Positions 1-28,412 of a stretch of DNA of 64,000 nucleotides are shown in pieces. Within the stretch, counting starts at the first letter, position 1; each line of letters begins with the position of its first letter. The DNA comes from an uncultured Chloroflexia bacterium (GTDB lineage Bacteria; Chloroflexota; Limnocylindria; Limnocylindrales; CSP1-4). Where the stretch lies: assembly GCA_963716375.1 (NCBI GenBank), contig OY970306.1, positions 2,296,477 to 2,360,476 on the forward strand, given 5' to 3'. A program made the position numbers and the translations under genes. The notes under the pieces are model-generated. The model ran no database searches and was not told the DNA's origin. It was given only the letters and a program-made list of their open reading frames with translations.

Positions 1-98
1 TCGATGCGGCCGTCCCGAATGCCGACGTCGGCCCGGTAGCCCGGCGCGCCGGTCCCGTCGACGATGATTCCGCCCAGGATCAGGATCTCGAATTCGAT
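1..98 (-). CDS. D-aminoacylase/amidohydrolase-family protein, N-terminal fragment (gene continues past the window edge)
   Basis: Reverse-strand translation of 3-98 reads IEFEILILGGIIVDGTGAPGYRADVGIRDGRI. This matches the N-terminal pattern of the complete D-aminoacylase at 52153-53721 (MEFDLIVRGGSVIDGSAG..ADVGVNGDRI). The codon aligned with that Met is ATC. There is no ATG/GTG/TTG between it and the in-frame TGA at 201-203, so the start is unresolved. Confidence 0.45.
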   Translation of the reverse strand, partial: MEFEILILGGIIVDGTGAPGYRADVGIRDGRI

Positions 99-200
99 GG
101 CCGTGTCCTCCCGCGGGGACTCTACCGCGACGGGAGACAGCCAACTGAGCCCGCCTGAACCATGGCCGCGCCCGGGGCGTCCCCAGAACGACCGGCGCGA

Positions 201-431
201 TCAGCGCGGCCGGGCGGACGGTCGGGCCGGGGTCGGGCTCTCGAACAGGCGGAACGCGAGGACCGGGCACGCGCCGACGGCCCGATGGGCGAGGTCGAGC
301 AGCTCCGGCTGCACCTCGGCGTTGCGGACGATCGGATAGCCCCAATCGTCGAGCGCGAGCAGCTCCGGCAGCAGCTCGGCGCAGATGCCGCGGCCATCGC
401 AGGCGATCCGGTCGATGTTGAGGACGGCCAT
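201..431 (-). CDS. small ferredoxin (three-Cys, single-cluster type)
   Basis: 76 aa: MAVLNIDRIACDGRGICAELLPE...HRAVGACPVLAF (C-x5-C ... CP). This is the last part of the listed 201..2576 ORF. Its ATG at 429-431 overlaps the TGA of the upstream gene (ATGA). Confidence 0.75.
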   Translation of the reverse strand: MAVLNIDRIACDGRGICAELLPELLALDDWGYPIVRNAEVQPELLDLAHRAVGACPVLAFRLFESPTPARPSARPR

Positions 432-2371
432 CAGCTGAATCCGCCGAGGACGGAGCAGCGGCCCTGCATGTGCAGCGCGAACTCGTCGGCGAAGATCCGC
501 AGGCCGCTCTTCAGGAAGACGGCGGCGCCGTCCGGGTGGGCGCACGCTCCACGGCCGGCGAGCTGCGCGCCCCACCGCCCGATTCGCTCGAGGTCGCCGG
601 GCTCCGGCGTCCGGCCGGCGACCCGCTGGGTGGCATCCGCCACGGCCCGCATTCCGAAGACGCAGGGCCCGCACTGGCCGACGCTCTCGCCGGCCATGTA
701 GGCCATCAGCGAGGCCGTCTGGACCACGCCGCACGTCGCCTGGGGCATCACGGCGATGACGCCGGCGCCGAACCACAGGCCATGGCGCGTCATCACGGCC
801 GGATCGAGCGGCAGCTCTCGCGCGTCGTGGACGTCGGCCCAGGCCCCGAACGAATCGCCGAGCATGACGCCCTGCCCAGCCCGCGTGAGCCCGCCGACGC
901 GCTCGAGCACCTCGCCCACCGTGGTCCCGAATTCGATCTCGACGACCCGCTGGGCAGGCGTCGTGCCGGAGACCGTGACGAGTGCCGTGCCCGGCGTCTC
1001 GCCGCGGCCCATCTGGCGGTACCAGGCGTCGCCATACCGTGCGATCAACGCGGCATAGGCCAGGCTCTCGACGTTCTGGACGAGCGTCGGCATCCCGCGG
1101 ACGCCGCGCTCGAACATCCGCGGCGGCGAACTGGTCGGGCGGGCATCCCCGGCGTTGATGTAGTGCACGGCCGCGGACGATTCGCCCACGACGTAGCCGA
1201 GCGGCGCCTCCACGAGCCGCACGGGCAGCGGGAATTCGTGCTGGCGTTCGGCAAGGGCGCGACTCATCGCGTCCCACGCCGGCCGATGCTCCTGGCCGAC
1301 GAACAGGACGATCTCGTCGGCCCCGACCGCGTCGGCCGCGATGATGGCGCCGTCGATCACGAGATGCGGCCGGAGTGCCATCAGGACCCGGTCCTTGCGG
1401 CTCGTCGGCTTGCCCTCGGCGCCATTGACGACGACCACGGCATTGCCGCTCGAACGCTCGGCGACGGCCCGCCACTTGCGGCCGACCGGAAAGCCCGCGC
1501 CGCCGCGGCCCTGGAGCCCCGTGGCTTCGATGATCGGGATCACCGCCGACCCGTGGAGCGGCAGCGGACCCAGCCGGCCGCGATGGTCGCGCAGGCTTTC
1601 GGCCCCGGCCGTCACGATCGGACCCGCGAGCAGCCGATCGGTCGAAAGGACCGGCGCCAGCGAGTGGGCGGTCACCGGCGGGCCGAACGGCCCGGGCGGC
1701 GGTTGTGGCGGTCGGCCTGCCCCACTCGGTGGCGGGACGTAGGTTCCCGCCTCGACCCGTGGGCCGTCCGCGAAACCGGAGGGATTGAGCATGCCGGACC
1801 GCTCGAGCGCGACCTTGGCGGGCACGAGGTCCTCGAGCCGCCGGCGCGCCTGGGCGTCGAGGATCCGCCAGGCGACGGCGCCTCCGACTGCAGCGATGCA
1901 GGCCACGTTGATGGCCTGCATCCAGAGCGCTCCGCTGTCCGTGCCGGTCCCGATGCTGTGAATCATGGCGATGGGCCAGAACGCGTAGGTCAGCCAGTGG
2001 ACAGCCCGCCACGTGCGCAGGCCGAGGCGATCGCGAACGAGGCTCGTCACGACGATCGCGATCAGGAGGTACATCGCCACGGAGCCGAGGCCGAGGTAGA
2101 GCCGGCGGTAGTCGGCCGAGAACGGGATGGCCGCCGACGTCCAGCCGAGGGCTGTGAACGGATCGATGATCGAGGTCACGATGTGGAGCGCCAGGAATAC
2201 GAGGGACGAGAGCGCGAGCGTGCGATGCAGTTCCGCCGAGAGGACCCTCGGCCAGGACGGCCGTTCCCAGCGGATCGCGGTCAGGAGGCCGAGGCAAAAG
2301 ACGATCGTGAACATGATCTGCGAGACGACGGCAGAGCCGCGGGTGCTGTACCAGAGGATCGAGTCGTTCAT
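431..2371 (-). CDS. fusion protein: ferric-reductase-type di-haem transmembrane domain + NuoF-like (NADH dehydrogenase 51-kDa-subunit-like) FMN/NADH/Fe-S domain
   Basis: 646 aa. The N-terminal ~175 aa form 5-6 hydrophobic helices with two His pairs at 13- and 12-residue spacing (H-RTLALSSLVFLAL-H and H-WLTYAFWPIAMI-H), as in MsrQ/NOX/FRE haem-b domains. After a Pro/Gly-rich linker come NuoF-type blocks: GLQGRGGAGFPVGRKW, VVVVNGAEGKPTSRKDR, LGYVVGESSAAV, PTLVQNVESL, GTALVTVSG and ESVGQCGPCVFG...GACAHPDG. Its ATG overlaps the apbE stop (ATGA at 2368-2371). Confidence 0.85.
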   Translation of the reverse strand: MNDSILWYSTRGSAVVSQIMFTIVFCLGLLTAIRWERPSWPRVLSAELHRTLALSSLVFLALHIVTSIIDPFTALGWTSAAIPFSADYRRLYLGLGSVAMYLLIAIVVTSLVRDRLGLRTWRAVHWLTYAFWPIAMIHSIGTGTDSGALWMQAINVACIAAVGGAVAWRILDAQARRRLEDLVPAKVALERSGMLNPSGFADGPRVEAGTYVPPPSGAGRPPQPPPGPFGPPVTAHSLAPVLSTDRLLAGPIVTAGAESLRDHRGRLGPLPLHGSAVIPIIEATGLQGRGGAGFPVGRKWRAVAERSSGNAVVVVNGAEGKPTSRKDRVLMALRPHLVIDGAIIAADAVGADEIVLFVGQEHRPAWDAMSRALAERQHEFPLPVRLVEAPLGYVVGESSAAVHYINAGDARPTSSPPRMFERGVRGMPTLVQNVESLAYAALIARYGDAWYRQMGRGETPGTALVTVSGTTPAQRVVEIEFGTTVGEVLERVGGLTRAGQGVMLGDSFGAWADVHDARELPLDPAVMTRHGLWFGAGVIAVMPQATCGVVQTASLMAYMAGESVGQCGPCVFGMRAVADATQRVAGRTPEPGDLERIGRWGAQLAGRGACAHPDGAAVFLKSGLRIFADEFALHMQGRCSVLGGFS

Positions 2372-3315
2372 GCCGCATCCGCCGCCGGGCCGACGAGCGG
2401 CTCCGGCCAGTGTCCGACCCGGCTGACGTCGCCGGCCCGCGACACGAGTCGGGCCGGGAGTCCGGCGGCTTCAAGCCACGCGATGGCGCGCTCGCCGAGC
2501 ACGATCGCCGCGGTCGCCGCCGTGTTGGCATCGACGCAGGTGCGGGCCACGACTGTCGCGGTCCGCCACGGCCCATCGACCGGCAATCCAGTCGCCGGAT
2601 CCACGATGTGATGGCGGACGATTCCGCCGGCCGTCCAGCGTCGAACCGTCGTGCTCGAGGTGGCCAGCGCGTCGCCGCGGATCGCGATCACCTCGCCATC
2701 GGCATCGGGTGGCGTGCGGCTGTCCTCGGCGCAGTTCACGCGCCAGCCGCCGTCGGGCGCGGGTCCGGCCGTTGCCAGGTCGCCGCCCAGGCTCACGAGG
2801 ACGCCGCAGCCGGCCGCCCGCTCGGCCGCGGTGGCCGCCAGGTCCGCGGCCAGGGCCTTGCCCGTCGAACCGAGGTCGAGACTCACCCCGCGGGGCACGC
2901 GTGCCGTTCGCGCGACCGAATCCAGCTGGATCGTGCGCCAGCCGGGCACGCGGACGATGGTGATCGGGGCAGGCATTGCGGCCGCCGTCAATGCGGCGAA
3001 ATCCCGGTCGTAGCCGAGCGCTCGGAGCGCGCCGCCGACGGTCGGATCGACAGCCCCATCGGTCATCACGGCGGCCCGGACGGCAGCCTGGAGCGCCTCG
3101 AACAGCAGTGGACTGACCCGGACGGGCCGGTCGGGTGACACATTGAGCGCGGTCAGCTCGCTATCGGCGCGGAAGCGGCTGTAGGTCGCATCGACGGTTT
3201 CGAGGACCAGGCGGACCGCCTCGGCGGCAACCGGGGCCGCCTGCTCGTCGGTCACGAGCACGTGGACGGACGTCCCGAGCGCTTCCCAGCGGACGGCGGC
3301 GATCGGCGACTCCAT
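2368..3315 (-). CDS. apbE: FAD:protein FMN transferase (ApbE family), no recognisable signal peptide
   Basis: 315 aa with ApbE-type blocks: YSRFRADSELTALN, DLGSTGKALAADL and RHHIVDPATGLPV. The N-terminus MESPIAAVRWEALGTSVHVLV goes straight into the mature-domain pattern, with no hydrophobic leader and no lipobox. Both ends have ATGA overlaps. Confidence 0.88.
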   Translation of the reverse strand: MESPIAAVRWEALGTSVHVLVTDEQAAPVAAEAVRLVLETVDATYSRFRADSELTALNVSPDRPVRVSPLLFEALQAAVRAAVMTDGAVDPTVGGALRALGYDRDFAALTAAAMPAPITIVRVPGWRTIQLDSVARTARVPRGVSLDLGSTGKALAADLAATAAERAAGCGVLVSLGGDLATAGPAPDGGWRVNCAEDSRTPPDADGEVIAIRGDALATSSTTVRRWTAGGIVRHHIVDPATGLPVDGPWRTATVVARTCVDANTAATAAIVLGERAIAWLEAAGLPARLVSRAGDVSRVGHWPEPLVGPAADAA

Positions 3316-3641
3316 CAGGATCCGCCGCTCGTTGTCTGGGCGGCCCGGCGCGTGGCCGTCGGGGTCGCGGTCGGCATGGCCGGTGTCGCGGCGGCCGTCG
3401 GGGAGGTCGTCGTCGTGGCCGCCGTCGTGGCCGCCGTCTCGACGGCCGCCGCCGTGGTCGTCCTGCTCGTGGCGGTGGTCGCGTCAGCTGCTGTCGAGCC
3501 ACCCGGATACGAGATGGCGGCGATGGCGCTGACTCCGACGACGGTCAGCGCGGCGGCGATCGTGCCACCCCGGTTGATCGCCGCCAGCCGCCGCACCATG
3601 CGGTCGCGGTTCGCGGGTCGGGAGTCGCGTGGCGTGTTCAT
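3315..3641 (-). CDS. small protein: twin-arginine-type signal/anchor followed by a Thr/Ala/Pro-rich tail (paralog A)
   Basis: 108 aa. It has an n-region RDRMVRRLAAINRGG, a weakly hydrophobic Ala/Gly-rich h-region TIAAALTVVGVSAIAAISYPG, then ~65 aa of low-complexity T/A/P ending in SGGS. AGGAAG lies ~9 nt before the ATG. Its TGA overlaps the apbE ATG. It is a paralog of 4047-4406. Confidence 0.6.
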   Translation of the reverse strand: MNTPRDSRPANRDRMVRRLAAINRGGTIAAALTVVGVSAIAAISYPGGSTAADATTATSRTTTAAAVETAATTAATTTTSPTAAATPAMPTATPTATRRAAQTTSGGS

Positions 3642-3689
3642 GGCCCAGGCTTCCTGTGGTTGGTGCGTCGACCCTGGCGCGGGGCGGCG

Positions 3690-3920
3690 TCAGGATCCTG
3701 AACCGACGGTGCCCCAGCGGAGGCTCGGTCGGCTCACTCTAGTGTCATTCGCAGGGTTCGTGCGCGAGTCGGTCGCGGCCACCTGGCTTCTCGCCCGCTG
3801 GGTCACCGGGTTCGTGCCGGGCCCGGGCGGCGGGGCGCCGATCGGCCCGAAGAGGGTGGCCTGGTCGCCGCGCACGACGACGGTTCCGGCAGGGAGGGGG
3901 CGGTCGATCGGTTGGTCCAT
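3690..3920 (-). CDS. candidate small ORF (76 aa), function unknown
   Basis: An internal Met of the listed 3690..3929 ORF is preceded by CCAGGAGTGACCCCG-ATG, a strong SD at 8 nt. The first ~40 codons are GC3-rich, as in the real genes here. The last ~25 codons use rare codons (AGA, AAT, ACT, CGA) and overlap the duplicated promoter-like segment upstream of 3315-3641. No recognisable domain. Confidence 0.3.
   Translation of the reverse strand: MDQPIDRPLPAGTVVVRGDQATLFGPIGAPPPGPGTNPVTQRARSQVAATDSRTNPANDTRVSRPSLRWGTVGSGS
3736..3741 (-). promoter_or_regulatory. putative -10 hexamer TAGAGT for small-protein gene A / apbE operon
   Basis: A TAnnnT hexamer ~95 nt upstream of the ATG at 3641. It lies inside a ~60-nt segment about 65 % identical to the segment upstream of paralog B, which carries TACAGT at the equivalent position. 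Confidence 0.3.
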
Positions 3921-4046
3921 CGGGGTCACTCCTGGTCATCGAGCTGTGCGCTCGGGTTCGAATTGCCAGGAGTGTCGCGGGCCGACCCTTTCGGTCCGAT
4001 TACGGCCGACGCGGTCTGATTCGCCCGCCACGACAGTGTCCGGGGA

Positions 4047-4406
4047 TCAGGATCCGCCGCTGCTGACGCGGCCGCGTCCCCGAGTGGACCGGGGCGGAGC
4101 CGTTGGCGCCGCGAACGTGGGCGCGGGCGTCGGTGCCGCCTGGGCCGTGGGATTCGGATTGACGGCTCCCGAGCGCGTCCGGGCCGGCGTCGGGGTGGCG
4201 GCCGGTTCGGGGTTCGTGATCCCCTGTCCGCCATCGTTGCCGCCGTCGGGCGCCGCGGCGGACGCGCCCGGGTATGAGATCGCGGCCACGGCACTGATGC
4301 CGACGACGGCCGCCGTCGCGGCGATCGCTCCGCCGCGGTTGATCAGGGAGAGCCGGCGGATGGTCCGATCCCGCTCGCGTGGACTGAGGTCCGGTGGGGT
4401 GCTCAT
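4047..4406 (-). CDS. small protein: twin-arginine-type signal/anchor followed by a Pro/Ala/Thr-rich tail (paralog B)
   Basis: 119 aa: RERDRTIRRLSLINRGG, then AIAATAAVVGISAVAAISYPGASA (an AxA-like site), then a low-complexity tail ending in SSGGS. AGGAA lies 6 nt before the ATG. The last 15 nt (AGCGGCGGATCCTGA) are identical to those of paralog A. Confidence 0.55.
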   Translation of the reverse strand: MSTPPDLSPRERDRTIRRLSLINRGGAIAATAAVVGISAVAAISYPGASAAAPDGGNDGGQGITNPEPAATPTPARTRSGAVNPNPTAQAAPTPAPTFAAPTAPPRSTRGRGRVSSGGS

Positions 4407-4504
4407 CGTGGATTCCTGTATCGCTCGGAGGTGGCCGGGACACTGGCCGTCATGAAGGTCGATGTCCCGAGCTCGTGGCCCCTGTGTCGAGGCTCGGCGT
4501 TCTG

Positions 4505-4510
4505 ACTGTA
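4505..4510 (-). promoter_or_regulatory. putative -10 hexamer TACAGT for small-protein gene B
   Basis: A TAnnnT hexamer ~99 nt upstream of the ATG at 4406, at the position equivalent to TAGAGT upstream of paralog A. Confidence 0.3.
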
Positions 4511-4642
4511 CCCGCTATCCAGGGAATCGTCGCGAACCGGTGCCTTTGGGCACCCCCGGACCGGCGGCCAACTGGCGCTGTCTTTGGGAACACACATCTT
4601 CGTCTCAGCCGACTCACAGACTGCGACGGCAGGCTGGTTGAA

Positions 4643-6076
4643 ATGAACAGCACAAGGGCGCCCCTGGGTCGACGCGCCCTCGATGGGAACCGCGGGCCCA
4701 CTCGGGGGCGGCATCTCACCGGACGTCCCGCCGTCCCGCACCCGCGGGTCTGGCCGATCGGCGTCGGCGACATTGCCTGGATCCTGCTCGGCAATGCGAT
4801 CCTGATCATCGCCATGTGGGTCCGTCACGGCCAGCTCTCCGAGCTCGGCAGCCTCTCTGGCCTCCTGACGGCTGCGGGCCAGGTCACGGCGCTGCTCGGG
4901 ACCTACGCCGTGCTGATCCAGCTCGTCCTGATGTCAAGAAGCCCATGGCTGGACCAGCAGTTCGGGATGGACCGGCTTGTTGTGTGGCACCGCTGGCTCG
5001 GGTTCGCCACGGTCTGGCTGCTCCTGGGTCACGGCATCTTCACGACCGCGGGGTATGCGCTCGGCGACGGCAGCAGCATGCCCGGCGAACTGTGGACGCT
5101 CCTCACCACCTATCCGTACGTGCTGATGGCGACCGCCGGGATGGCCCTGTTCCTGGCGGTGGGTGTCAGTTCCGTGCGGCGCGTCCGAAAGCGGGTTTCG
5201 TACGAGACGTGGTACGGGATCCACCTCTATGCGTACCTCGCGGTTGCGTTGGCATTCGCCCACCAGCTCGCGGTCGGATCCGATTTCACGTCCGATCCAC
5301 TGGCTCGCGTCTACTGGGTCGCCCTCTATGCATTCGTCGCCGTGCTGGTCCTGGTCTTTCGGATCGGTCACCCGATCGCGCTCTCGCTGCGCCATCGATT
5401 GCGCGTGTCGAGCGTCGTCCAGGAAGCGCCCGGGGTCGTGTCGGTCTACGTGACCGGTCGGGACCTGGATCGACTCGCCGTTCGAGCCGGCCAGTACTTC
5501 CTCTGGCGGTTCCTGGCGCGAGACGGATGGTGGCGAGCGCATCCCTTCTCCCTCTCGGCCGCGCCGAACGGGAAGTACCTTCGGTTGACGATCAAGGAGC
5601 TCGGCGATTGGTCGGGCGCCCTCCAGGATCTCCATCCCGGCACGCGAGTCTTCGCCGAGGGTCCATACGGGCGGCTCACCTCGTCCGCTCGGCGCACCTC
5701 GCGCGTGCTGCTGATCGCGGGCGGCATCGGGATCACGCCGCTGCGAGCGCTCCTCGAGGAACTGCCCAGCGGAGCCGGGGCGGTCACGCTGATCTATCGC
5801 GCCCGCGATTGGAGCGACGTCGTCTTCCACGACGAGCTGGAGGAACTGGCTCGAGCGCGTGGTGCCGAGATCCACTTCGTCGTCGGCGAGCGCGGCAGCC
5901 CCGACGTCCCGGACGATCCGCTCGGGGCGCCATCGATTCGCCGCCTGGTCCCCGACATCCTCATGCGGGACGTCTATCTCTGCGGCCCGCTCGGGATGAT
6001 GGACGCCGTCAGGCATGCGCTTCGAACGCTCCGTGTGCCCGCGAGTCGCATCCACAGCGAACGATTCGCGTACTGA
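4643..6076 (+). CDS. NOX/FRE-type reductase: ferric-reductase di-haem TM domain + FAD-binding + NAD(P)H-binding domains
   Basis: Start taken at MNSTRAP, the internal ATG at 4643 of the listed 4394..6076 ORF. Two His pairs are present: H-RWLGFATVWLLLG-H (13 residues apart) and H-LYAYLAVALAFA-H (12 apart). Also present are RAHPFSLS (HPFS FAD motif), LLIAGGIGITP (NAD(P)H motif) and YLCGPLGMM. Confidence 0.88.
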   Translation: MNSTRAPLGRRALDGNRGPTRGRHLTGRPAVPHPRVWPIGVGDIAWILLGNAILIIAMWVRHGQLSELGSLSGLLTAAGQVTALLGTYAVLIQLVLMSRSPWLDQQFGMDRLVVWHRWLGFATVWLLLGHGIFTTAGYALGDGSSMPGELWTLLTTYPYVLMATAGMALFLAVGVSSVRRVRKRVSYETWYGIHLYAYLAVALAFAHQLAVGSDFTSDPLARVYWVALYAFVAVLVLVFRIGHPIALSLRHRLRVSSVVQEAPGVVSVYVTGRDLDRLAVRAGQYFLWRFLARDGWWRAHPFSLSAAPNGKYLRLTIKELGDWSGALQDLHPGTRVFAEGPYGRLTSSARRTSRVLLIAGGIGITPLRALLEELPSGAGAVTLIYRARDWSDVVFHDELEELARARGAEIHFVVGERGSPDVPDDPLGAPSIRRLVPDILMRDVYLCGPLGMMDAVRHALRTLRVPASRIHSERFAY

Positions 6077-6079
6077 GAG

Positions 6080-6790
6080 ATGCGATTCGTTCTGCCACGA
6101 CGCGGCGTGCTTGCGCTCCTCAGCACGATCATCGGTCTGGTCCTCCTGCTGGGATTCAAGACTCCCCAGCCGATCCTGACGACCGGAGTCGGAATCGTTG
6201 CACGAGGCTCGAACCCGGCAAGATCGACCGCTCCAATCGCCCTTGGCCCGGGGGCTGGCAGATCTGCCACGACCAATCCGCCCGCCACTGCCATTCCGTC
6301 GCCGGCCAGCCAGACAAGCGGGATCCTCTCGGCCGCGGGCCCATCGACGTCGCCGAGCGCTGGTTCGACCACGAAACCGGTGCTCTCGACTGCCCAAGCC
6401 GGCAAGCGGGCGAATCACGCGGCCACGCCGCGGCCGGCCAGGACGCCGCCGCCTGCGCCACCCACCGCGGCGCCAACGCCGCACCGGACGCCGACTCCGA
6501 CGCCGGCCGCGTTCACCGGCAGCGTCACGGGTCCCGTTGTCGCGACCCCGTTCGGCGACGTCCAGGTTCGGGCCACCCTTTCGAGCGGGAAGCTCGTTGA
6601 CGTCCAGCCCTTGCAGATGCCGTCGGACGCGACCCGGTCGCAGATGATTGCCCAGTACGCGGCGCCGATCCTCCGGAGCGAGGCACTCACCGCCCAGAGC
6701 GCGCAGATCAACCTCGTGTCCGGAGCGACCTACACGAGCGAGGGCTACGCGCAATCGCTCCAGGCGGCTCTCGATCAGGCGAGGCGCTGA
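6080..6790 (+). CDS. membrane-anchored/exported FMN-binding-domain protein (ApbE flavinylation substrate type)
   Basis: 236 aa. The N-terminus is MRFVLPRRGVLALLSTIIGLVLLLGF, followed by a ~120-aa Pro/Thr/Ala linker. The C-terminal FMN_bind-type domain reads GDVQVRATLSSGKLVDVQPL...QSAQINLVSGATYTSEGY, with the [S/T]GA[S/T] motif. The gene starts 3 nt after the reductase gene. Confidence 0.85.
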   Translation: MRFVLPRRGVLALLSTIIGLVLLLGFKTPQPILTTGVGIVARGSNPARSTAPIALGPGAGRSATTNPPATAIPSPASQTSGILSAAGPSTSPSAGSTTKPVLSTAQAGKRANHAATPRPARTPPPAPPTAAPTPHRTPTPTPAAFTGSVTGPVVATPFGDVQVRATLSSGKLVDVQPLQMPSDATRSQMIAQYAAPILRSEALTAQSAQINLVSGATYTSEGYAQSLQAALDQARR

Positions 6791-6858
6791 CGTTTCCCGG
6801 GGAACCGGAGCAATGGGGAGCGTTTCTCGGACGCCCGGCCATCCGTGCAGCCGACAGC

Positions 6859-9522
6859 TCAGGGCTGAGGCGTCTTTCCCTGGACCAGCTGGACCATCTC
6901 ATCGAGGCTCAGGGATCGCCCCGCTGCGTACGCTTCCTCGAAGGCCTCCTCGCCCAAAGCACCCCGAGCGACGGGCGCCGGGTCGTCGAGGCCGAGGAGG
7001 TGCATCGGCGTGGCGATGTCGCCCAGAGGCTCCTTGAGTCGGGCGGCTGCACCGCAAAGGAGAGCGGCCCCCTTGGGATCGCCTTCCACGACCGCGAGCA
7101 TGCCCGCCATGATGAGGAGGCTGACGATGCGCTGCATGTCGCCCGCCTGACGGAACAGGCCGATCGCCTCGCCGAGGCTCTTGTGGGCCGCGGCGAATGC
7201 GTGGTCCTTGATGTTGATTCCGGACAGCAGACTGAGCGCGCTCGCGATCCGGAACGTTTCCCCGGCGGTTCGGAGGGCGGCCAGGTTCTCCTCCTCGACG
7301 GCTCGCGCCGCAGCGTAGTCGCCCGAGTGATACAGGATGAACACGAGAGCCTCGTGAACATTGACGAGGCTCTTGCGGTCCCCGATCGCCTCGTAGATTC
7401 GAATGGCTTCGTCGTACCTGGCCCGGGCGCCGGCATGGTCGCCGGTGAGCGCCGCCACGAACCCCGCGTTGTAGAGCGCGCCAGCGAGCCCGCCCGGATC
7501 ATCGAGCTCGCGCTCGATTTCAAGGGCCTCCTCGTAGGCGTGCCCGGCACTTGCAATGTCCGCTTGCCAGTAGGCGACGCCTCCGAGTCCGCCGAGAGCC
7601 CTCGCGCGGGCCCCGGTTCGGCCGGCTGCCCCAGGCCGATCGAGCAGACCGCGGAGCGTCTCTCGGCCCTCAACCAGGTGCCCGCGCTGCTGCCAGAACC
7701 GCCAGAGCGCCGCGGCCATGTCGAGGGCGAGCTCGATGCGGCCATCGTCGGCCGCTCGCCCAATGGCCGCCCGCAGGTTGTCGCGGTCCATCTCGAGGCG
7801 GTCGAGCCACTCTTTCGGGCGCGAGCCCAGCAGCTCGGGTTCGGCCCGTCGCGCCAGGGCCGCGAACTGGTCTTCATGTCGGTGTCGGACCGTCTCGTTC
7901 TCCGCGCCCTCAGCCAGGCGTTCGAGGCCGTACTCTCGGATCGTCTCCAGCATCAGGAAACGCGGTTCGCCATTGGGTGATTGGATCTGTCGCAGGAGGC
8001 TCTTGTCCACGAGGGAGGCCAGCGCGTCGAGCATGTCGATCCCCAGCTCGCCGTCCGGATCGCAGACCGCCGCGGCGCTCTCGATCGTGCACCCGCCGAC
8101 GAAGATGGCGAGCCGACGGAACAGCATGCGTTCAGGTGCATCCAGGAGGTCTTGGCTCCAGCCGATCGCCCCGCGGAGCGTGCGCTGTCGCTCGGGAACG
8201 TCGCGCGAGCTGCTCGTCAGAAGCGCCAGGCTCTTCTCCAGGCGCGCCAGGATGGCCTCGGGCCCGAAGAGCTTGCTGCGGGCGGCAGCCAGCTCGATCG
8301 CCAGCGGCAGGCCGTCCAGGCGTGCACAGATGGCGGCGACCGCCGACGCGTTCTGCTCGTCGAGCCGGAAGTCCGGCTGCACGGCCCGCGCCCGCTGGAT
8401 GAACAGGGCCACGCCGTCGTACCCGGTGAGCGACTCCAGGGGCGGCAGGGCACTCGGGTTCGGGACTCCCAGCGGCGGGACCGGATACTCCTGTTCACCG
8501 CTCAGATGCAGCACCTCCCGACTCGACGCCAGGACCGTCAGGTGCGGCGCAGCCGCCAGGAGACGTCCGACCAGAGGTGCGCCGGCAACAAGCTGTTCGA
8601 AGTTGTCGGCCACGAGCAGGAGGTGGAGTTCGCGCAGGTACGCCTCGAGCAGCTCCGCGACGGGCTGCTTCGGGTCTTCTCGGAGACCGATCGACTGCGC
8701 GATCGTGGTCGGGATCAGGCCAGGGTCGCTGATCGGAGCAAGCTCCACGAAGAACGCGCCGCCCGGGTATTCCGGCCGGAGTTGTTCTGCCACGCGCAGG
8801 CTCAGCCGTGTCTTGCCGGCCCCGCCTGGACCGGTCAGAGTCACCAGCCGCGAGTGCCGAACCAGCTCGCAGACCTCAGCGATCTCCCGTTCACGGCCCA
8901 CAAAGCTCGTCGCCTGGGGCGGCAGGTGGGACGGCATCTCCAGCGTCCGAGGCGGCGGGAAGTCGTCCGCCAGGCCCGGGCCGACGAGCTGCGCCAGGCG
9001 CTCCGGCAGTTCGAGATCCTTGAGCCGGAACTCGCCCAGCTCGCGCAGCTGAAGATCTGCGGGGAGCGATCCGCGGACCAGCACGCCGGTTGCCGAGGAG
9101 ACGAGAACCTGACCGCCGTGCGCCGCGGCCGCGATGCGCGCCGCACGGTGGACATCCAGGCCCACGTAGTTGTCGCCGCCGAAGGTGGCCTCGCCCGTGT
9201 GAAGACCCATGCGTACGCGGACAGCCCCGACATTGTCAGGCCACGGCTCGGTCGCAAGGGAGCGTTGCGCCGCTGCCGCGGCCGACAGAGCCGAGGCGGC
9301 ACTTTGGAACACGACGAAGAAGGCGTCCCCTTCGGTCGAAATCTCGATCCCTCCGGCCGTCTCGAACGCAGCGCGGAGGAGGCTGTGGTGCCGCTCGAGA
9401 AGCGGCCCAAACGCAGGCCCCAGGGCGGTCACGAGGCGGGTTGACCCCTCGATGTCCGTGAACATGAACGTGATCGTGCCGGTTGGCAGGGTTGAAGCAC
9501 GCGACCGCGACTGGTTCGCCAC
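6859..9522 (-). CDS. class III adenylate/guanylate cyclase domain + P-loop STAND (NB-ARC-like) ATPase + TPR repeats
   Basis: 887 aa. Cyclase blocks: TFMFTDIEGST, EGDAFFVVF, VRMGLHTGE and HRAARIAAAAHGGQVLVS. Walker A: LTGPGGAGKTRL. The C-terminal ~350 aa are TPR-like (repeated A..Y.EAL.I......). GTG start. Confidence 0.85.
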   Translation of the reverse strand: MANQSRSRASTLPTGTITFMFTDIEGSTRLVTALGPAFGPLLERHHSLLRAAFETAGGIEISTEGDAFFVVFQSAASALSAAAAAQRSLATEPWPDNVGAVRVRMGLHTGEATFGGDNYVGLDVHRAARIAAAAHGGQVLVSSATGVLVRGSLPADLQLRELGEFRLKDLELPERLAQLVGPGLADDFPPPRTLEMPSHLPPQATSFVGREREIAEVCELVRHSRLVTLTGPGGAGKTRLSLRVAEQLRPEYPGGAFFVELAPISDPGLIPTTIAQSIGLREDPKQPVAELLEAYLRELHLLLVADNFEQLVAGAPLVGRLLAAAPHLTVLASSREVLHLSGEQEYPVPPLGVPNPSALPPLESLTGYDGVALFIQRARAVQPDFRLDEQNASAVAAICARLDGLPLAIELAAARSKLFGPEAILARLEKSLALLTSSSRDVPERQRTLRGAIGWSQDLLDAPERMLFRRLAIFVGGCTIESAAAVCDPDGELGIDMLDALASLVDKSLLRQIQSPNGEPRFLMLETIREYGLERLAEGAENETVRHRHEDQFAALARRAEPELLGSRPKEWLDRLEMDRDNLRAAIGRAADDGRIELALDMAAALWRFWQQRGHLVEGRETLRGLLDRPGAAGRTGARARALGGLGGVAYWQADIASAGHAYEEALEIERELDDPGGLAGALYNAGFVAALTGDHAGARARYDEAIRIYEAIGDRKSLVNVHEALVFILYHSGDYAAARAVEEENLAALRTAGETFRIASALSLLSGINIKDHAFAAAHKSLGEAIGLFRQAGDMQRIVSLLIMAGMLAVVEGDPKGAALLCGAAARLKEPLGDIATPMHLLGLDDPAPVARGALGEEAFEEAYAAGRSLSLDEMVQLVQGKTPQP

Positions 9523-9621
9523 TCGCCCAGCATACGGCGACGGGTGATCGTGATCCGCTCGGTCACTTCAGCGCGGCGGGAACCCTCCGCAGGCGGCAAT
9601 CCCGGAGGTTGAGTGGCGTGC

Positions 9622-9635
9622 CCGACACGTGTCGG
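9622..9635. promoter_or_regulatory. perfect 14-nt palindrome CCGACACGTGTCGG flanked by direct repeats
   Basis: Perfect dyad in the 229-nt spacer between the ABC permease stop (9752) and the cyclase start (9522). It is flanked by GGAGGTTGAGT (9604-9614) and GGAGGTTGGAGT (9634-9645). Confidence 0.35.
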
Positions 9636-9751
9636 AGGTTGGAGTACCGATCTGAGCGAGGCAGGGCCGACCCACTGCTGGGGAGCTCGCCTGATCGCTG
9701 AGGAGATCGCCTCTCCGAGACACGCTCCCACGCCTCGCGGCTTGCCGACGT

Positions 9752-10546
9752 CTATCGATGGGCGGGGTCGCGTTCGTAGAGCTTCCTTGCCCACAGGAAG
9801 CCCAGCAACGAGATGGCCACGCACCAGGCCACGGCGATGACGCCGCTGTTGCCGATCGGGGTCCCGAGCAGCAGCCCGCGCAACGTCTCGATGATCGGCG
9901 TGAAGGGCTGGTTCTCCGCGAACCAGCGAAGGCCGTCCGGCAGCGTCTGCGTCGGCACGAATCCACTGCCGAGGAACAGCAGGAGCATGAGGAACATCGG
10001 CAGGTTGCTGGCGGTTTCGACGCTGCGAGTCGACAGGCCGAGTGCGACGGAGAGCCAGGTCACCGCCAGCGTCGTCAGCGCCAGCAGCGCCGCGGCCGCC
10101 ACCCAGGACAGGAGCCCGGTCGTCGGCCGGAACCCGACCAGCAGGGCGACGACCACCACGATGACCAGCGCCAGGCCGGTCTGGACGACGCTGCCGGCCA
10201 CGTGGCCGATCAGAACCGAGGCCCGGGAGATCGCCATCGTCCGGAAGCGGGCGACGATGCCCTCGGTCATGTCCATCGCCACCGAGATCGACGTCCCCGT
10301 CGCGGCACCCACGACGGTCAGCAACAGGATTCCGGGGACGACATACGCGATGTAGGCGTCCCGGCCACTGCCCGGGCCACCGAGCCCGGCGCCGAGGGTG
10401 CCGCCGAAGATGTAGACGAACAGGAGGAGCAGCACGACCGGGATGCCCGCCGTGAAGAGCGTCAGCGACGGGTATCGCTGCATGTGGCGGAGGTCCCGGC
10501 GCAGCATCGTGGCCGAATCGGTCAGGACGTGCGAGTACGAGGTCAT
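9752..10546 (-). CDS. ABC-2-type transporter permease (DrrB-like)
   Basis: 264 aa with six hydrophobic segments. The N-terminus MLRRDLRHMQRYPSLTLF is typical of ABC-2 permeases. Its start overlaps the stop of the ATPase gene (TGATG). Confidence 0.85.
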   Translation of the reverse strand: MTSYSHVLTDSATMLRRDLRHMQRYPSLTLFTAGIPVVLLLLFVYIFGGTLGAGLGGPGSGRDAYIAYVVPGILLLTVVGAATGTSISVAMDMTEGIVARFRTMAISRASVLIGHVAGSVVQTGLALVIVVVVALLVGFRPTTGLLSWVAAAALLALTTLAVTWLSVALGLSTRSVETASNLPMFLMLLLFLGSGFVPTQTLPDGLRWFAENQPFTPIIETLRGLLLGTPIGNSGVIAVAWCVAISLLGFLWARKLYERDPAHR

Positions 10547-12185: not shown

Positions 12186-13166
12186 CTACCCGAGGGCGAC
12201 CATCCGCTCGACGGCCTGGCGGGCTCGCTCCGCGATGGCTTCGGGGACGGTCACCTCGAACTGCATCTCGAGCAGTGAGTCGCGCAGGTTCTCGAGCGTG
12301 ATCATCTTCATGAAGCCACAGACCGCCTCGGCCGAGGCCGGTTCGAAGATCTTGTCCGGGGCGGCCTTGCGCAGCCGATGGAGGATGCCGACCTCCGTCG
12401 CGACGATGAAGGTCGACTTCTCGGAGGTCTGGGCGAGCCGGATCATCCCCTCGGTCGAGAGGATCTTCATGTTGTCGTTGCCGAAGGCCATGCACTGGCT
12501 GGCGCAGCCGCACTCGGGATGGACGAGGAACTCGGCGTCCGGCGACGCGTTCTGCCAGCGCTCGATGTCGTCCGAGCGGATGCCGGCGTGGACATGGCAC
12601 TCGCCGAGCCAGATCTTCAGCTTGCGGCCCGTCACGCGCTCGAGGTACATCCCCAGGTTCACGTCCGGCAGGAACAGGATCTCGCGGTCGGCCGGGATCG
12701 CCTCGATGACCGAGCGTGCGTTGCCCGAGGTGCAGCAGTAGTCGGCCTCCGCCTTGACCTCGGCCGTGGTGTTCACGTAGGCGACGACGACGGCCCCCGG
12801 GTTCTGCGCCTTCCACGTCCGCAGCTGATCGGCCGTGATCGAGTCGGCCAGGGAGCAGCCGGCGCCCAGATCCGGGATCAGGACCGTCTTGTCGGGCGAG
12901 AGGATGGCGGCCGTCTCGGCCATGAATTTGACGCCGCACATCGCGATGACCGGCCGATCCGAGGCCGCCCCGAACCGGGCGAGGGCCAGCGAATCGCCGA
13001 CGAAGTCGGCCACGTCCTGGACCTCGGCCCGCTGGTAGTTGTGGGCGAGGATCACGGCGTTGCGGGTCCGGGCGAGATCGCGGATCTCCGCCTGCAGATC
13101 GAGCACGCGGGCCCATTCCGACGGGGGCGCCAATGCCAGGGCAGGGGCCATCGCCAGCGCGGTCAT
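12186..13166 (-). CDS. nadA: quinolinate synthase
   Basis: 326 aa: ILAHNYQ, MCGVKFMAETA, AYVNTTAEVKA, CCTSGNA and HPECGC are NadA blocks. Its start overlaps the nadC stop (ATGA). Confidence 0.93.
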   Translation of the reverse strand: MTALAMAPALALAPPSEWARVLDLQAEIRDLARTRNAVILAHNYQRAEVQDVADFVGDSLALARFGAASDRPVIAMCGVKFMAETAAILSPDKTVLIPDLGAGCSLADSITADQLRTWKAQNPGAVVVAYVNTTAEVKAEADYCCTSGNARSVIEAIPADREILFLPDVNLGMYLERVTGRKLKIWLGECHVHAGIRSDDIERWQNASPDAEFLVHPECGCASQCMAFGNDNMKILSTEGMIRLAQTSEKSTFIVATEVGILHRLRKAAPDKIFEPASAEAVCGFMKMITLENLRDSLLEMQFEVTVPEAIAERARQAVERMVALG

Positions 13167-14083
13167 GAGAGAACCTCCAGGGAGACATCGAGCGAACGGG
13201 CGCCGTGCGTGAGCGCGCCCACGGAGATGAAGTCGACGCCGGTCTCGGCGATCGATCGGATGGTGGCGAGGTTGACGCCGCCCGAAGCCTCGAGCGGGAC
13301 CCGGCCGGCGACGAGATCGACGGCCTGGCGCTGCAGTGCCAGCGGCATGTTGTCGAGCAGGATGCGGTCCGCTCCGGCCGCCAGGGCCTCGCGAACGTCG
13401 GCGAGGGATTCGGTCTCGACCTCGATCAGCAGGGACGGCGCCGCCGCCCGCGCCCTTCGCACGGCCGGGCCGACGCCGCCAGCGGCTCGGAGATGGTTGT
13501 CCTTGATGAGCACCGCGTCGTACAGGCCGAGGCGATGGTTGGTGCCGCCACCGCAGCGAACGGCGTACTTCTCGAGCGCCCGGAGGCCGGGCGTGGTCTT
13601 GCGGGTGTCGAGGATGACGGCCCCGGTACCGGTCACGGCATCGACATAGGCTCGCGTCAGGGTCGCGATGCCGGACAACCGTGCCAGCAGGTTCAGCGCC
13701 GTCCGCTCCCCCGCCAGGACGGCCCGCAACGGACCTTCGATCTGTGCGACGACTGCCGGCGGCGCGTCGAACGTGGCCGCATCTTCCGCGAGGTGCGTGA
13801 CGCTGACCTCGGCGTCGAGCGCGGCGAACGTGGCGTCGATGACGGCGAGTCCAGCGAGCACGCCCGGTTCCTTCAGGAGGACGCGCGCCCGGCAGCGAGT
13901 CGCCGGATCGATGAGCGCCTCGCTCGTGACGTCGCCCGGACCGAGGTCCTCGGCGAGGGCCGCCGCCACGACGCGCGCCAGATCGGGCGCGTCGGCAAGC
14001 AGGGCTAGGAACGATCCGTGTGGCGCGGTCCGGCCCGGAACCGTGGCCGGGGCCGGCCCGGCACCGGCAAGGGTCGCGCTCAC
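13163..14083 (-). CDS. nadC: nicotinate-nucleotide diphosphorylase (carboxylating) / quinolinate phosphoribosyltransferase
   Basis: AGERTALNLL, ILDTRKTTPGLR, KYAVRCGGG.NHR, LIKDNH and LDNM are NadC blocks. Start set at the GTG at 14081-14083 (VSATLAG...); the longer listed ORF (to 14206) only adds non-homologous sequence. The start is uncertain. Confidence 0.88.
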   Translation of the reverse strand: MSATLAGAGPAPATVPGRTAPHGSFLALLADAPDLARVVAAALAEDLGPGDVTSEALIDPATRCRARVLLKEPGVLAGLAVIDATFAALDAEVSVTHLAEDAATFDAPPAVVAQIEGPLRAVLAGERTALNLLARLSGIATLTRAYVDAVTGTGAVILDTRKTTPGLRALEKYAVRCGGGTNHRLGLYDAVLIKDNHLRAAGGVGPAVRRARAAAPSLLIEVETESLADVREALAAGADRILLDNMPLALQRQAVDLVAGRVPLEASGGVNLATIRSIAETGVDFISVGALTHGARSLDVSLEVLS

Positions 14084-14200
14084 GACACGATCCGTGCGCG
14101 GGCGCGCGTCACGGTGGTCTCGAATGCCGACAATGGGCGGGTCAAGGGACGCCTCGGTAGGTTTACGACTCTGGAGCGAATACCGGCAGGATACACGCCC

Positions 14201-14896
14201 ATGCAAGACCTTTCAAGCCCGTTTGGCCAGCCGACGCACTACGTCCTCGGCGCGGTGCTGCAGGTTCGCGACGATCAGCTGGACGTACTGCTCTGGCAGC
14301 GGGCCCGCGAACCGTTCGCCGGCCAGTGGTCGCTGCCCGGCGGCGCGCTCGTGGCGCGCGAATCGCTGGAGGCCTCGATCCGCCGCCACCTGGCGGCCAA
14401 GGTCGACGTTCGCGAGCTCGCCCACCTCGAGCAGCTCGAGACCCTCAGCGAGCCGGACCGGCACCCCGATGAGTGGCAGGTCGCAACTGCCTATCTCGGG
14501 CTCGTCCCGTCCGACGCGAACCCCTCGCTGCCATCCGACACGGCCTGGCACCGGATCGGGTCACTGCCGCCGCTCGCGTTCGACCACCAGCGGATCGTGA
14601 TGGCCGCCCGCGATCGCCTCCGCGCCAAGCTCTCCTACACGAACGTCGGCTTCGCGATCGCACCGCGCGAGTTCACCCTGGCGGAGTTGCGGGACCTGTA
14701 CGCCGCGGCCCTCGGCCACCAGGTCGCGGCCACGAACCTCCAGCGGATCCTGGTGCGGCGGCAGCTGCTCGAACCACTTGTCGAGCGGCGCGCCCCGACG
14801 GCCGCGGGTGGCCGGCCGGCCCAGCTCTTCCGGTTCCGGACGCGCCAGATCGAGATCACGGACCAGTTCGCCGTCCTGAAGCCGCGCGACCGCTGA
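14201..14896 (+). CDS. nrtR: NrtR-type regulator (degenerate Nudix domain + C-terminal winged helix)
   Basis: 231 aa, from the internal ATG of the listed 14018..14896 ORF. The Nudix fold has a degenerate box, GGALVARESLEASIRRHLAAKV: the REUxEE glutamates are replaced by RHLAAK. The C-terminus FTLAELRDLYAAALGHQVAATNLQRILVRR is the NrtR wHTH pattern. It is divergent from nadC-nadA. Confidence 0.8.
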   Translation: MQDLSSPFGQPTHYVLGAVLQVRDDQLDVLLWQRAREPFAGQWSLPGGALVARESLEASIRRHLAAKVDVRELAHLEQLETLSEPDRHPDEWQVATAYLGLVPSDANPSLPSDTAWHRIGSLPPLAFDHQRIVMAARDRLRAKLSYTNVGFAIAPREFTLAELRDLYAAALGHQVAATNLQRILVRRQLLEPLVERRAPTAAGGRPAQLFRFRTRQIEITDQFAVLKPRDR

Positions 14897-21844: not shown

Positions 21845-22024
21845 GGCCGGCCGCCGGGGATCGCCGGGGTGGTCGCCACGACGGGCAGCCTGACCCGCGG
21901 TCCAATCGCGAATCTAGGCCGGCTCGAGGACCCGGTCAGCGACAGGCGGGTGTCGCTTGGGTTGCGATTGGGAACGGCCCGGCAGGGCGCGAGCCGCAGC
22001 CCCGCGAAGGTCTACGATCGGCGT

Positions 22025-24394: not shown

Positions 24395-24480
24395 ACATCA
24401 CCGACGCCATCGGTGGCGTGATCGCGCTCCTCGTCGGCCTGTACCTCCTGTGGACCCTCGTCCGTGCGGAGGATTTTTGA
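24391..24480 (+). CDS. kdpF: K+-transporting ATPase subunit F
   Basis: MNITDAIGGVIALLVGLYLLWTLVRAEDF is 29 aa. The C-terminal L.RAEDF matches the KdpF signature (E. coli ...LINAEAF). It is not in the ORF track because it is shorter than 60 aa. It ends 1 nt before kdpA. Confidence 0.8.
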   Translation: MNITDAIGGVIALLVGLYLLWTLVRAEDF

Positions 24481-24481
24481 C

Positions 24482-28398: not shown

Positions 28399-28412
28399 GG
28401 CAGGAGTCCGTC

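Follow-up and report, generated by a model that had tools for sequence, protein, structure and literature searches.

The region from 201 to 6790 of a 64,000-nucleotide stretch of DNA from an uncultured Chloroflexia bacterium (contig OY970306.1 of assembly GCA_963716375.1; this whole stretch is called the window below) encodes two divergent sets of genes for transmembrane electron transfer linked to protein flavinylation, the covalent attachment of flavin mononucleotide (FMN) by the transferase ApbE. The minus-strand genes encode small membrane proteins, ApbE, a di-haem membrane domain fused to a NuoF-like domain, and a ferredoxin; the plus-strand genes encode a NOX-type reductase and an FMN_bind protein. 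A first-pass annotation had taken the two reductases to be alternative inputs to one ApbE/FMN_bind pair. In the present study, we compared the region with related loci, and found that its two halves are conserved independently of each other and that the small proteins end in a conserved motif in register with the recognition motif of ApbE. We propose, tentatively, that these small proteins are ApbE substrates.

The features of the two halves are as follows (coordinates in the window, strand, description).

201..431, minus strand: single-cluster ferredoxin with three Cys, 76 aa (Pfam Fer4_15, E 2e-10)
431..1636, minus strand: NuoF-like NAD(P)H/FMN/Fe-S domain, aa 246-646 of the 646-aa fusion, with the stop codon (PF01512 Complex1_51K, 108 bits; PF10589 NADH_4Fe-4S, 56 bits)
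1637..1801, minus strand: Pro-rich linker, about aa 191-245 of the fusion, where all relatives have a stop codon and a new start
1802..2371, minus strand: six-helix di-haem Ferric_reduct domain, aa 1-190 of the fusion (PF01794, 35 bits)
2368..3315, minus strand: ApbE1, leaderless homologue of the FAD:protein FMN transferases (FAD, flavin adenine dinucleotide), 315 aa (PF02424, 178 bits, domain from residue 13)
3315..3641, minus strand: small108, a small membrane protein with the tail motif, 108 aa, first gene of the operon (family hidden Markov model (HMM), E 4.5e-20); its stop codon overlaps the apbE start (TGATG)
3318..3338, minus strand: C-terminal heptad Q-T-T-S-G-G-S of small108, with Ser108 as the candidate flavinylation site (sequence and family statistics)
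4047..4406, minus strand: small119, a paralogue of 119 aa (family HMM, E 1e-24; 46-65% identity to small108)
4050..4070, minus strand: C-terminal heptad R-V-S-S-G-G-S of small119, with the last Ser as the candidate flavinylation site (sequence and family statistics)
4643..6076, plus strand: bacterial NOX-type reductase, 477 aa (Pfam Ferric_reduct, PF01794, 68 bits; FAD_binding_8 with HPFS; NAD_binding_1 with GGIGITP)
6080..6790, plus strand: membrane-anchored FMN_bind protein, 236 aa (PF04205, 24.7 bits against a cut-off of 22)
6710..6730, plus strand: predicted flavinylation motif N-L-V-S-G-A-T of the FMN_bind protein (SGAT at 214-217, inside PF04205), with Thr217 as the predicted FMN-Thr

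Loci and searches

Related loci were taken from species-representative genomes: the best 80 for the fusion protein (NuoF-type loci) and the best 80 for the NOX-like protein (n = 160). Locus content was scored by tblastn with all window proteins, in a flank of 10 kb around the NuoF-type loci and 8 kb around the NOX-like loci. Nearly all relatives (54-68% identity) are metagenome-assembled genomes (MAGs) of Chloroflexota (Limnocylindria/'Chloroflexia') or Dormibacterota. Gene calls and Pfam marks were made on contigs encoding small-protein homologues, including L161-L166; L-numbers are labels of the fetched loci, and P-numbers denote members of the small-protein family.

The minus-strand cassette

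Every domain call of the first-pass annotation was upheld in the Pfam profile searches, and 431-2371 on the minus strand is, as it had claimed, a single unbroken open reading frame (ORF) of 646 aa that joins the ferric-reductase membrane domain to the NuoF-like domain. The haem ligands of the fusion, His49/His63 and His125/His138 (spacings 14 and 13), are invariant in 36/36 relatives. In the same 36, two separate genes encode the haem domain and the NuoF-like protein; the fusion is therefore unique to the window. The two were also called as separate genes in L161, L162, L165, and L166. The fusion has no FNR-type HPF[ST] and NAD(P)H motifs, and the NuoF-like domain stands in their place.

The NuoF-like domain could be aligned with HydB/NuoF entries of the PDB (E 1e-44 for 7p5h_B). 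At its cluster site Cys567, Cys570, and Cys610 are present, with Val564 in place of the first Cys. The first Cys is absent from 80/80 NuoF-like relatives (Ala, Ser, Val, or Thr occurs instead), and the other three Cys are invariant. The score for TIGR01959, the NuoF equivalog, is 210 bits, below the cut-off of 559, and the genes beside the domain are those for ApbE and the ferredoxin; it is not encoded with nuoE, nuoG, or other complex I genes. Judged from its sequence, the window protein is NuoF-like, not NuoF.

The ferredoxin gene follows the NuoF-like gene in 79/80 loci, and Cys11, Cys17, and Cys55 of its product are invariant across 76-78 relatives. All junctions of the operon had been described as ATGA overlaps. 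This holds for the ApbE/fusion junction, but the small-protein/ApbE and fusion/ferredoxin junctions are TGATG with a 1-nt overlap, and the ferredoxin gene is therefore 201-431, not 201-434.

ApbE, the ferric-reductase domain, the NuoF-like protein, and the ferredoxin occur together in 36 of the 80 NuoF-type loci; the other 44 encode the NuoF-like protein and the ferredoxin without the rest of the cassette. The same order, with 4-nt overlaps throughout, was found in Streptomyces anandii (small protein, ApbE, Ferric_reduct, NuoF-like, Fer4_15), and there is no FMN_bind gene near that cassette. Similar arrangements occur in L162-L166 and several MAGs, with no FMN_bind gene nearby in any of them. 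The minus-strand unit is thus a self-contained cassette that recurs in Chloroflexota, Dormibacterota, and one Streptomyces without an FMN_bind gene.

Several neighbours of these genes were recorded. A pair of genes for an OmpR-type response regulator and a histidine kinase adjoins the cassette in about 26/36 loci, and in L161, L162, L165, and L166 as well. No such pair is adjacent to the window cassette; its place is occupied by an amidohydrolase/D-aminoacylase-like gene (IEFEILILGGIIVDGTGAPGY..., 1 to about 105, minus strand), which begins roughly 100 nt beyond the ferredoxin stop and is cut by the left edge of the window. In the 44 loci noted above (L002, L003, L005-L008, and others, many of them Chloroflexia MAGs), the three-Cys NuoF-like protein and the three-Cys ferredoxin form a two-gene unit, for which no conserved upstream neighbour was seen among three loci inspected. 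This stand-alone pair looks like an uncharacterised soluble NAD(P)H:ferredoxin module. VIT1 adjoins the small-protein gene in L164 and lies within 6-8 kb in four other loci. These positions of VIT1 faintly echo the suggestion of iron assimilation made for MsrQ-like systems (Meheust et al. 2021, PMC8238504), and weakly hint at Fe(III) as the terminal acceptor.

The NOX-like/FMN_bind pair

The two bis-His haem motifs and the HPFS and GGIGITP motifs reported earlier for 4643-6076 were all found there. As read from the sequence, the haem His pairs are HRW...GH and IHLY...AH, with spacings i/i+14 and i/i+13. The best PDB match is 8qt6 (E 3e-17), whose record is named 'FAD-binding FR-type domain-containing protein'; 8qt6/8qq7 is, we presume, the Streptococcus pneumoniae NOX. 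The 80 relatives of the NOX-like protein show 58-68% identity, and the alignment with L117 begins at residue 1.

The FMN_bind gene starts 3 nt past the NOX-like stop, and its product contains LVSGATYTS, again as noted before. In this protein a P/T/A-rich linker leads from a hydrophobic anchor at the N-terminus to the FMN_bind domain at 159-232; at position -6 of its motif Asn replaces the usual Asp. In about 75/80 relatives an FMN_bind gene adjoins the NOX-like gene or lies near it, and in about 34/80 NOX-like loci it is followed by an ApbE gene of their own (ApbE2, 25-36% identical to the window ApbE). The pair is an 'MsrQ-like' flavinylation system as described by Meheust et al. (2021).

The next gene past FMN_bind, on the minus strand (6859-9522), encodes a regulator of 887 aa whose domains are of the adenylate/guanylate cyclase, STAND NTPase, and TPR types. 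Its orthologues (41-54% identity) are found near the NOX-like gene in L084, L090, L150, and L158, and it may therefore regulate the NOX-like/FMN_bind pair.

Independent conservation of the two units

None of the 80 NuoF-type loci has a NOX-like or FMN_bind gene within 10 kb, and none of the 80 NOX-like loci has the cassette within 8 kb. Eight assemblies are represented in both sets. In these the two units do not share a contig or, on the only one that carries both, CAVRBO010000004.1, are separated by more than 340 kb (L143 ends at 157 kb, L055 starts at 505 kb). As no locus of either set holds the other unit, the back-to-back arrangement is specific to this lineage. ApbE belongs to the NuoF-type cassette, and FMN_bind belongs to the NOX-like gene.

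These results do not support the two reductases as alternative inputs to one ApbE/FMN_bind pair: the neighbourhood comparison that had been suggested as a check of that reading found no co-conservation of the halves. The divergent units do adjoin, but the operon and the plus-strand pair are not immediate neighbours, as had been described; what faces the NOX-like gene is small119, a gene that had been missed. The broader description of the region as a flavinylation-linked transmembrane redox locus, with FNR-type and NuoF-type cytoplasmic inputs and without a gene for a terminal enzyme, is supported.

A family of small membrane proteins

The small protein at the head of the operon had been described as a signal plus a linker. 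It does head the operon, but its conserved C-terminal motif had been overlooked. In 31/32 informative loci the gene that ends at the apbE start encodes a small protein of 93-124 aa with an Arg-rich N-terminus, one helix, and an S/T/A/P-rich tail ending in [AV][ST][ST]G[GS]S. The layout of small119 is similar, with an Arg-rich N-terminus, one helix, a P/A/T-rich tail, and the end ...RVSSGGS*. The exception is L079, in which YceI occupies the slot upstream of apbE and the small protein is encoded downstream.

In all full-cassette loci whose flank was long enough (34/34) the family HMM found a copy, and six loci have another one downstream. The 80 NOX loci gave no match, and of the 44 NuoF-only loci L051 alone gave one. 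Since the HMM matches cassette loci and none of the NOX loci, small119 belongs to the cassette. A word-indexed profile search gave 82 clusters, and an exhaustive search gave 849 representatives at E<=1e-3 and 245 at E<=1e-10 (clusters at 50% identity). All 849 are small, unnamed, and without a Pfam domain, and the match reaches the C-terminus.

Neither small108 nor small119 matches Pfam or NCBIfam, and the 82 homologues have no precomputed Pfam domain. AlphaFold2 (AF2), with an alignment of 43 sequences for small108, gave one helix at 9-44; residues 48-87 had a predicted local distance difference test score (pLDDT) below 50, with no further secondary structure. Among the known flavin-binding folds tested (Pfam, NCBIfam, AF2), none is matched by the small proteins. 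Juxtamembrane segments 'R-L-R-x-L-T' and 'AA-x-S-Y-x-G' are conserved, and the N-terminal flank of the helix is Arg-rich.

Genes for glycosylation (GtrA/PMT_2) flank 5-8 of the 36 cassettes and none of the 80 NOX or 44 NuoF-only loci, which hints at O-glycosylation of the S/T-rich tail. Together with the positive-inside rule, as applied to the Arg-rich flank, these genes support a tail that is probably extracytoplasmic. Examples of GtrA-like and PMT_2 (protein O-mannosyltransferase-like) genes beside the cassette are at 13521-16030 in L165 and 8345-8782 in L162.

Two further observations concern this family. L162 encodes a YceI-domain protein upstream of apbE (2301-3041), and its small tail protein is encoded past the two-component genes, beside GtrA. 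In E. coli, YceI has a cytochrome b561 gene as its partner. As an alternative ApbE substrate, YceI (L162, L079) was rejected: it has no [ST]G[AGS][ST], and both loci keep a small tail protein downstream. The other observation is from the spacer between the two small-protein genes of the window.

3642..4046, minus strand: spacer between the small-protein genes, 405 nt (no Rfam match)

The spacer contains an ORF of 79 aa (3690-3929, minus strand; G+C at third codon positions 0.84) of uncertain reality, with no homologue in the 166 fetched loci. It ends in GTVGSGS*, and its last nine nucleotides, GGATCCTGA, are shared with both small-protein genes. A third, degenerate copy of the small-protein gene was rejected here, as the common GGATCCTGA ending was the sole likeness and the family HMM gave no match; the ORF may be a decayed duplicate or a chance occurrence.

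ApbE1

ApbE1 (2368-3315) is the sole ApbE match in the window, as had been claimed; a second one was sought throughout the 64 kb and none was found. Its PDB matches include 1vrm (E 2e-26) and 6nxi (E 8e-20). Ser220 and His236, which correspond to Ser241 and His257 of the Vibrio cholerae enzyme, are invariant among close homologues. V. cholerae Asp285 corresponds to Asn264, a position occupied by Asn in 120/120 close homologues, and 107/121 retain an Asp two residues before it. The other ApbE type, ApbE2, keeps Asp or Glu at the Asp285 position.

ApbE1 has no signal peptide or lipobox; 112/120 homologues have 8-11 residues ahead of the ALGT motif. The other ApbE type in these phyla is likewise leaderless. 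Fusion of the small protein to ApbE by frameshifting or readthrough was rejected: the overlaps are ordinary (TGATG, ATGA, or GTGA) with no slippery site, L072 and L076 have a different relative frame, and the 120 closest ApbE1 proteins do not exceed 344 aa.

The C-terminal heptad

The small-protein consensus ends in H-[AV]-[ST]-[ST]-G-[GSA]-S. The ending [ST][ST]G[GSA]S, followed by 0-3 residues, is present in 108/110 unique members and 128/136 further representatives; the exceptions are mostly fragments or frameshifts, with a few near-miss endings. Over the 108 motif-bearing members, position -6 is His in 82, Thr in 9, Gln in 6, and Arg in 3 (Gln or Arg in the window copies), -5 is Val or Ala, -4 is Ser or Thr, and -3 is Ser or Thr in 102. 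Gly at -2 and Ser at 0 are found in 108/108, and -1 is Gly in 68 (including the window copies), Ser in 37, and Ala in 3. Some members, such as P0047, P0070, and P0082, have the canonical TGAS.

The canonical flavin-tag sequence is GVDGLSGATLTS. According to Tong et al. (2021), as reported in PMC12052999, the recognition motif of ApbE is D-x-x-[ST]-G-A-[ST], with FMN on the last residue; these seven residues suffice, best at a terminus, with a minor effect of Asp to Ala and with Ser accepted. Flavinylation of an unstructured C-terminal extension has been shown experimentally for Lactococcus FMN_red (Huang et al. 2024, PMC11334425). The heptad of the small proteins is in register with the recognition motif, and [ST] at -3, Gly at -2, and Ser at 0 agree.

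Within the locus, [ST]G[AGS][ST] is confined to small108, small119, and the FMN_bind protein. A flavinylation motif was also sought in the fusion, ApbE, the ferredoxin, and the NOX-like protein, and none was found. Because the cassette combines an ApbE with a transmembrane haem wire and offers no further candidate, we propose the small proteins as ApbE substrates.

Proposed explanation and alternatives

Our best explanation, for which belief and doubt seem to us about balanced, is that the locus encodes two modules of the MsrQ-like class, independent of each other and driven by NAD(P)H, for electron transfer across the membrane, with the small proteins as flavin carriers. In the plus-strand module (module B, 4643-6790), which is the usual form of this class, NAD(P)H would reduce the FAD of the NOX-like protein, and electrons would then pass through the two b-haems to FMN on Thr217 of the anchored FMN_bind protein, outside the membrane. 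The minus-strand module (module A, 4406-201) consists of one or two small proteins, ApbE1, the di-haem domain, the NuoF-like protein, and the three-Cys ferredoxin. NAD(P)H would be oxidised at the FMN of the NuoF-like protein, and electrons would move through its Fe-S centre(s) to the two haems, with the ferredoxin as a relay or an alternative donor. They would leave onto FMN esterified by ApbE1 to the last Ser of the small-protein heptad. The small protein would thereby lack any flavin-binding domain; a single helix would anchor it, and its flavin would hang on a flexible, S/T-rich tether some 60 residues long.

With somewhat more doubt than belief, we further suggest that there is a new and widespread class of domainless ApbE substrates, formed by the small proteins, in which a disordered and possibly glycosylated tail with a flavinylated Ser serves as a tethered shuttle from the outer haem to acceptors in the envelope. 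The class would have a dedicated, leaderless ApbE, whose Asp-to-Asn change would have occurred together with the Asp-to-His change of the substrate. The literature searched contains no description of a domainless small protein as an ApbE substrate.

Several points weigh against this reading. The heptad deviates from the recognition motif twice, with His/Gln/Arg for Asp at -6 and Gly/Ser for Ala at -1; no test of Gly or Ser at -1 was found in the literature searched, and the acceptor position is always Ser, the less favoured residue. Asn264 of ApbE1 replaces one of three conserved active-site residues, so that its activity could differ; on its sequence, the replacement may be either a change coupled to that of the substrate or a sign of altered activity. 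ApbE1 looks leaderless, yet both candidate substrates are predicted to be extracytoplasmic, and flavinylation would therefore precede translocation or require unconventional export. A twin-arginine translocation (Tat) signal in the small protein was rejected, as the N-terminal RR is not conserved and R-L-R alone is; the Tat route is unsupported. The Gly-Gly codons of the motif fall where the ribosome-binding site of apbE is expected: GGNGG lies 5-10 nt upstream of the apbE start, which the small-protein stop overlaps in nearly all loci. This could explain part of the conservation at most. Finally, the survey covers 160 loci, the top 80 of each search.

The likeliest alternative, though we think it somewhat unlikely, is that the small proteins are not flavinylated and are structural or assembly subunits of the haem domain. 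A known partner subunit of this kind is p22phox, which accompanies NOX2. The tail would then be kept for ribosome binding or coupling, as a docking peptide, or for another modification. The conserved juxtamembrane segments suggest helix packing, as such a subunit would need, and the deviating motif, Asn264, and the overlap with the apbE start also favour this view. However, ribosome binding as the sole cause of the motif was rejected on three grounds. First, the Ser and Gly codons vary synonymously, with both Ser codon families in use at the conserved [ST][ST] and final Ser; because these codons vary freely, selection acts on the protein. Second, the 'TGSS' variants have no GGNGG and keep the amino-acid pattern intact. 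Third, copies that are not followed by apbE retain the motif, namely small119 and the downstream copies of L047, L052, L056, L068, L070, L079, and L162. The canonical TGAS of some members and the lack of another candidate substrate in the cassette also weigh against the subunit view.

It is unlikely that the FNR-type and NuoF-type reductases both feed one FMN_bind protein served by one ApbE, with the small proteins incidental. This would suit the adjoining, divergent units and the single ApbE and single FMN_bind gene in 64 kb. Furthermore, in a sample of seven genomes ApbE shows complementarity: the NOX locus lacks its own ApbE in 4/4 MAGs that have the cassette, and has its own in 3/3 MAGs that have the NuoF-like protein and ferredoxin without the cassette. 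Asn at -6 of the FMN_bind motif, as in the window, occurs in 9/41 loci without ApbE2 and in 1/37 with it. On the other hand, the halves never co-localise in the related loci, the cassette is complete and conserved without an FMN_bind gene (in Streptomyces also), the NOX-like gene is faced by a cassette component, small119, and the complementarity rests on seven genomes. In view of the complementarity, the single ApbE of the window may also mature the FMN_bind protein; a shared ApbE may be the one part of the earlier idea of integration that survives.

It is very unlikely that ApbE1 binds or hydrolyses FAD to provide the NuoF-like protein with FMN. Such a role would suit the invariant Asn264, the lack of a leader, the position of its gene directly upstream of that for the FMN-dependent NuoF-like protein, and the FAD pyrophosphatase form of Ftp/ApbE described in PMC4767422. 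Against it, the His257 and Ser241 equivalents are invariant, the Asp two residues before Asn264 is largely kept, the NuoF-like protein has no [ST]G[AGS][ST] motif and needs none, and the motif-bearing small protein that always accompanies ApbE1 would be left unexplained.

Taken together, the original observation is partly confirmed and largely right, and its interpretation is partly supported. The finding is largely ordinary in that two known types of module happen to adjoin. Each module is of a known kind, and the fusion is a local variant; it is the tail-motif family, with its own ApbE subfamily, that merits experiment.

Significance

Flavinylated proteins are the main non-cytochrome route for electrons out of many bacteria. 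To our knowledge, all ApbE substrates hold their flavin in or against a folded domain. If the proposal is right, holding a flavin on nothing but a flexible chain would depart from that design and come closer to a bound form of the free extracellular flavin shuttles. The respiratory physiology of Chloroflexota and Dormibacterota is poorly known, and the family is abundant in those of soil, with 849 clusters and thousands of matching ApbE proteins. The small proteins would also account for some of the 'orphan' apbE genes for which earlier surveys (PMC8238504) had no explanation, and would offer protein engineering a flavin tag that is natural, shorter, and comes with a transferase of its own.

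Other features of the window

The window has a G+C content of about 70%. One further feature belongs to the locus.

4407..4642, no strand: divergent intergenic region between small119 and the NOX-like gene (no consensus promoter, no Rfam match)

FMN and other riboswitches, promoters, and terminators were sought in positions 1-10000, and nothing above chance was found. The rest of the window is ordinary chromosome, including NadA/NadC, GltB, KdpABC, an ABC transporter, and the cyclase-STAND regulator. NadA, NadC, and an NrtR-like Nudix regulator are encoded at 12186-14896, about 8 kb from the cassette; in L165 a QRPTase gene lies 2.5 kb from the cassette, which may reflect conserved synteny. 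KdpD appears to be split: the DUF4118-HisKA-HATPase half (21869-23785, plus strand) is upstream of kdpABC (24464-29012), and the sensor and Usp half is a separate ORF downstream of it (29023-30204, plus strand).

Comparison with known systems

The closest systems are the MsrQ-like clusters, in which a PF01794 di-haem protein is clustered with apbE and a substrate, occasionally with VIT1 (PMC8238504; AlphaFold model in PMC11334425). They are defined operationally by a PF01794 gene with ApbE, FMN_bind, DUF2271, or DUF3570 within five genes (PMC8238504), and the locus has two PF01794 genes, with ApbE (2368-3315) and FMN_bind (6080-6790) in that range. As for secretion features, the FMN_bind protein has its N-terminal hydrophobic anchor and ApbE has none; the cassette relatives, which have no FMN_bind gene, would fall short on this point. 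Two reductase types around one ApbE/FMN_bind pair had been presented as an unusual arrangement. They do stand side by side here, but both inputs are already listed for MsrQ-like clusters, of which 1437 have an NAD-binding domain and 31 a NuoF-like one (Meheust et al. 2021, PMC8238504). The locus differs in having the two input types together, in the fusion of the membrane domain to the NuoF-like protein (0/36 relatives), and in a NuoF-type cassette that has the tail-motif small protein instead of FMN_bind, DUF2271, or DUF3570. As far as PMC8238504 and PMC11334425 are searchable, they contain no description of such a small protein; because ApbE is leaderless and has no predicted signal peptide, the cassette clusters would drop out of the survey of PMC8238504.

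The Flavin-tag and the tail of Lactococcus FMN_red resemble the small proteins in that a short, unstructured terminal peptide is enough for FMN on the last Ser or Thr (PMC11334425, PMC12052999). However, the Flavin-tag is artificial, and the FMN_red tail folds back on an existing flavin-binding domain, whereas the small proteins have no folded domain. Their heptad also reads H-[AV]-[ST]-[ST]-G-[GSA]-S, not D-x-x-[ST]-G-A-[ST], and their candidate site is known from sequence. A leaderless ApbE has a precedent in Klebsiella pneumoniae, where ApbE has no signal peptide and acts inside the cell on a soluble cytoplasmic fumarate reductase (review PMC12052999); here, in contrast, the site is predicted to lie outside the membrane in each of the two candidate targets.

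With the NOX/FRE/MsrQ superfamily, both membrane proteins share the six-helix di-haem domain with four His, as pairs in TM3 and TM5 (spacings 14 and 13), and the plus-strand protein shares HPFS and GGIGITP as well. They differ in that electrons presumably go to a covalent flavoprotein and not straight to O2 or Fe(III), and in that the minus-strand protein has a NuoF-type in place of an FNR-type dehydrogenase. With NuoF/Nqo1 and HydB, that dehydrogenase shares the Complex1_51K FMN/NADH fold, GRGGAGFP, and the C-terminal Fe-S domain, and is distinguished from them by the absence of the first N3 Cys, by the lack of NuoE/NuoG partners, and by the three-Cys ferredoxin that follows it.

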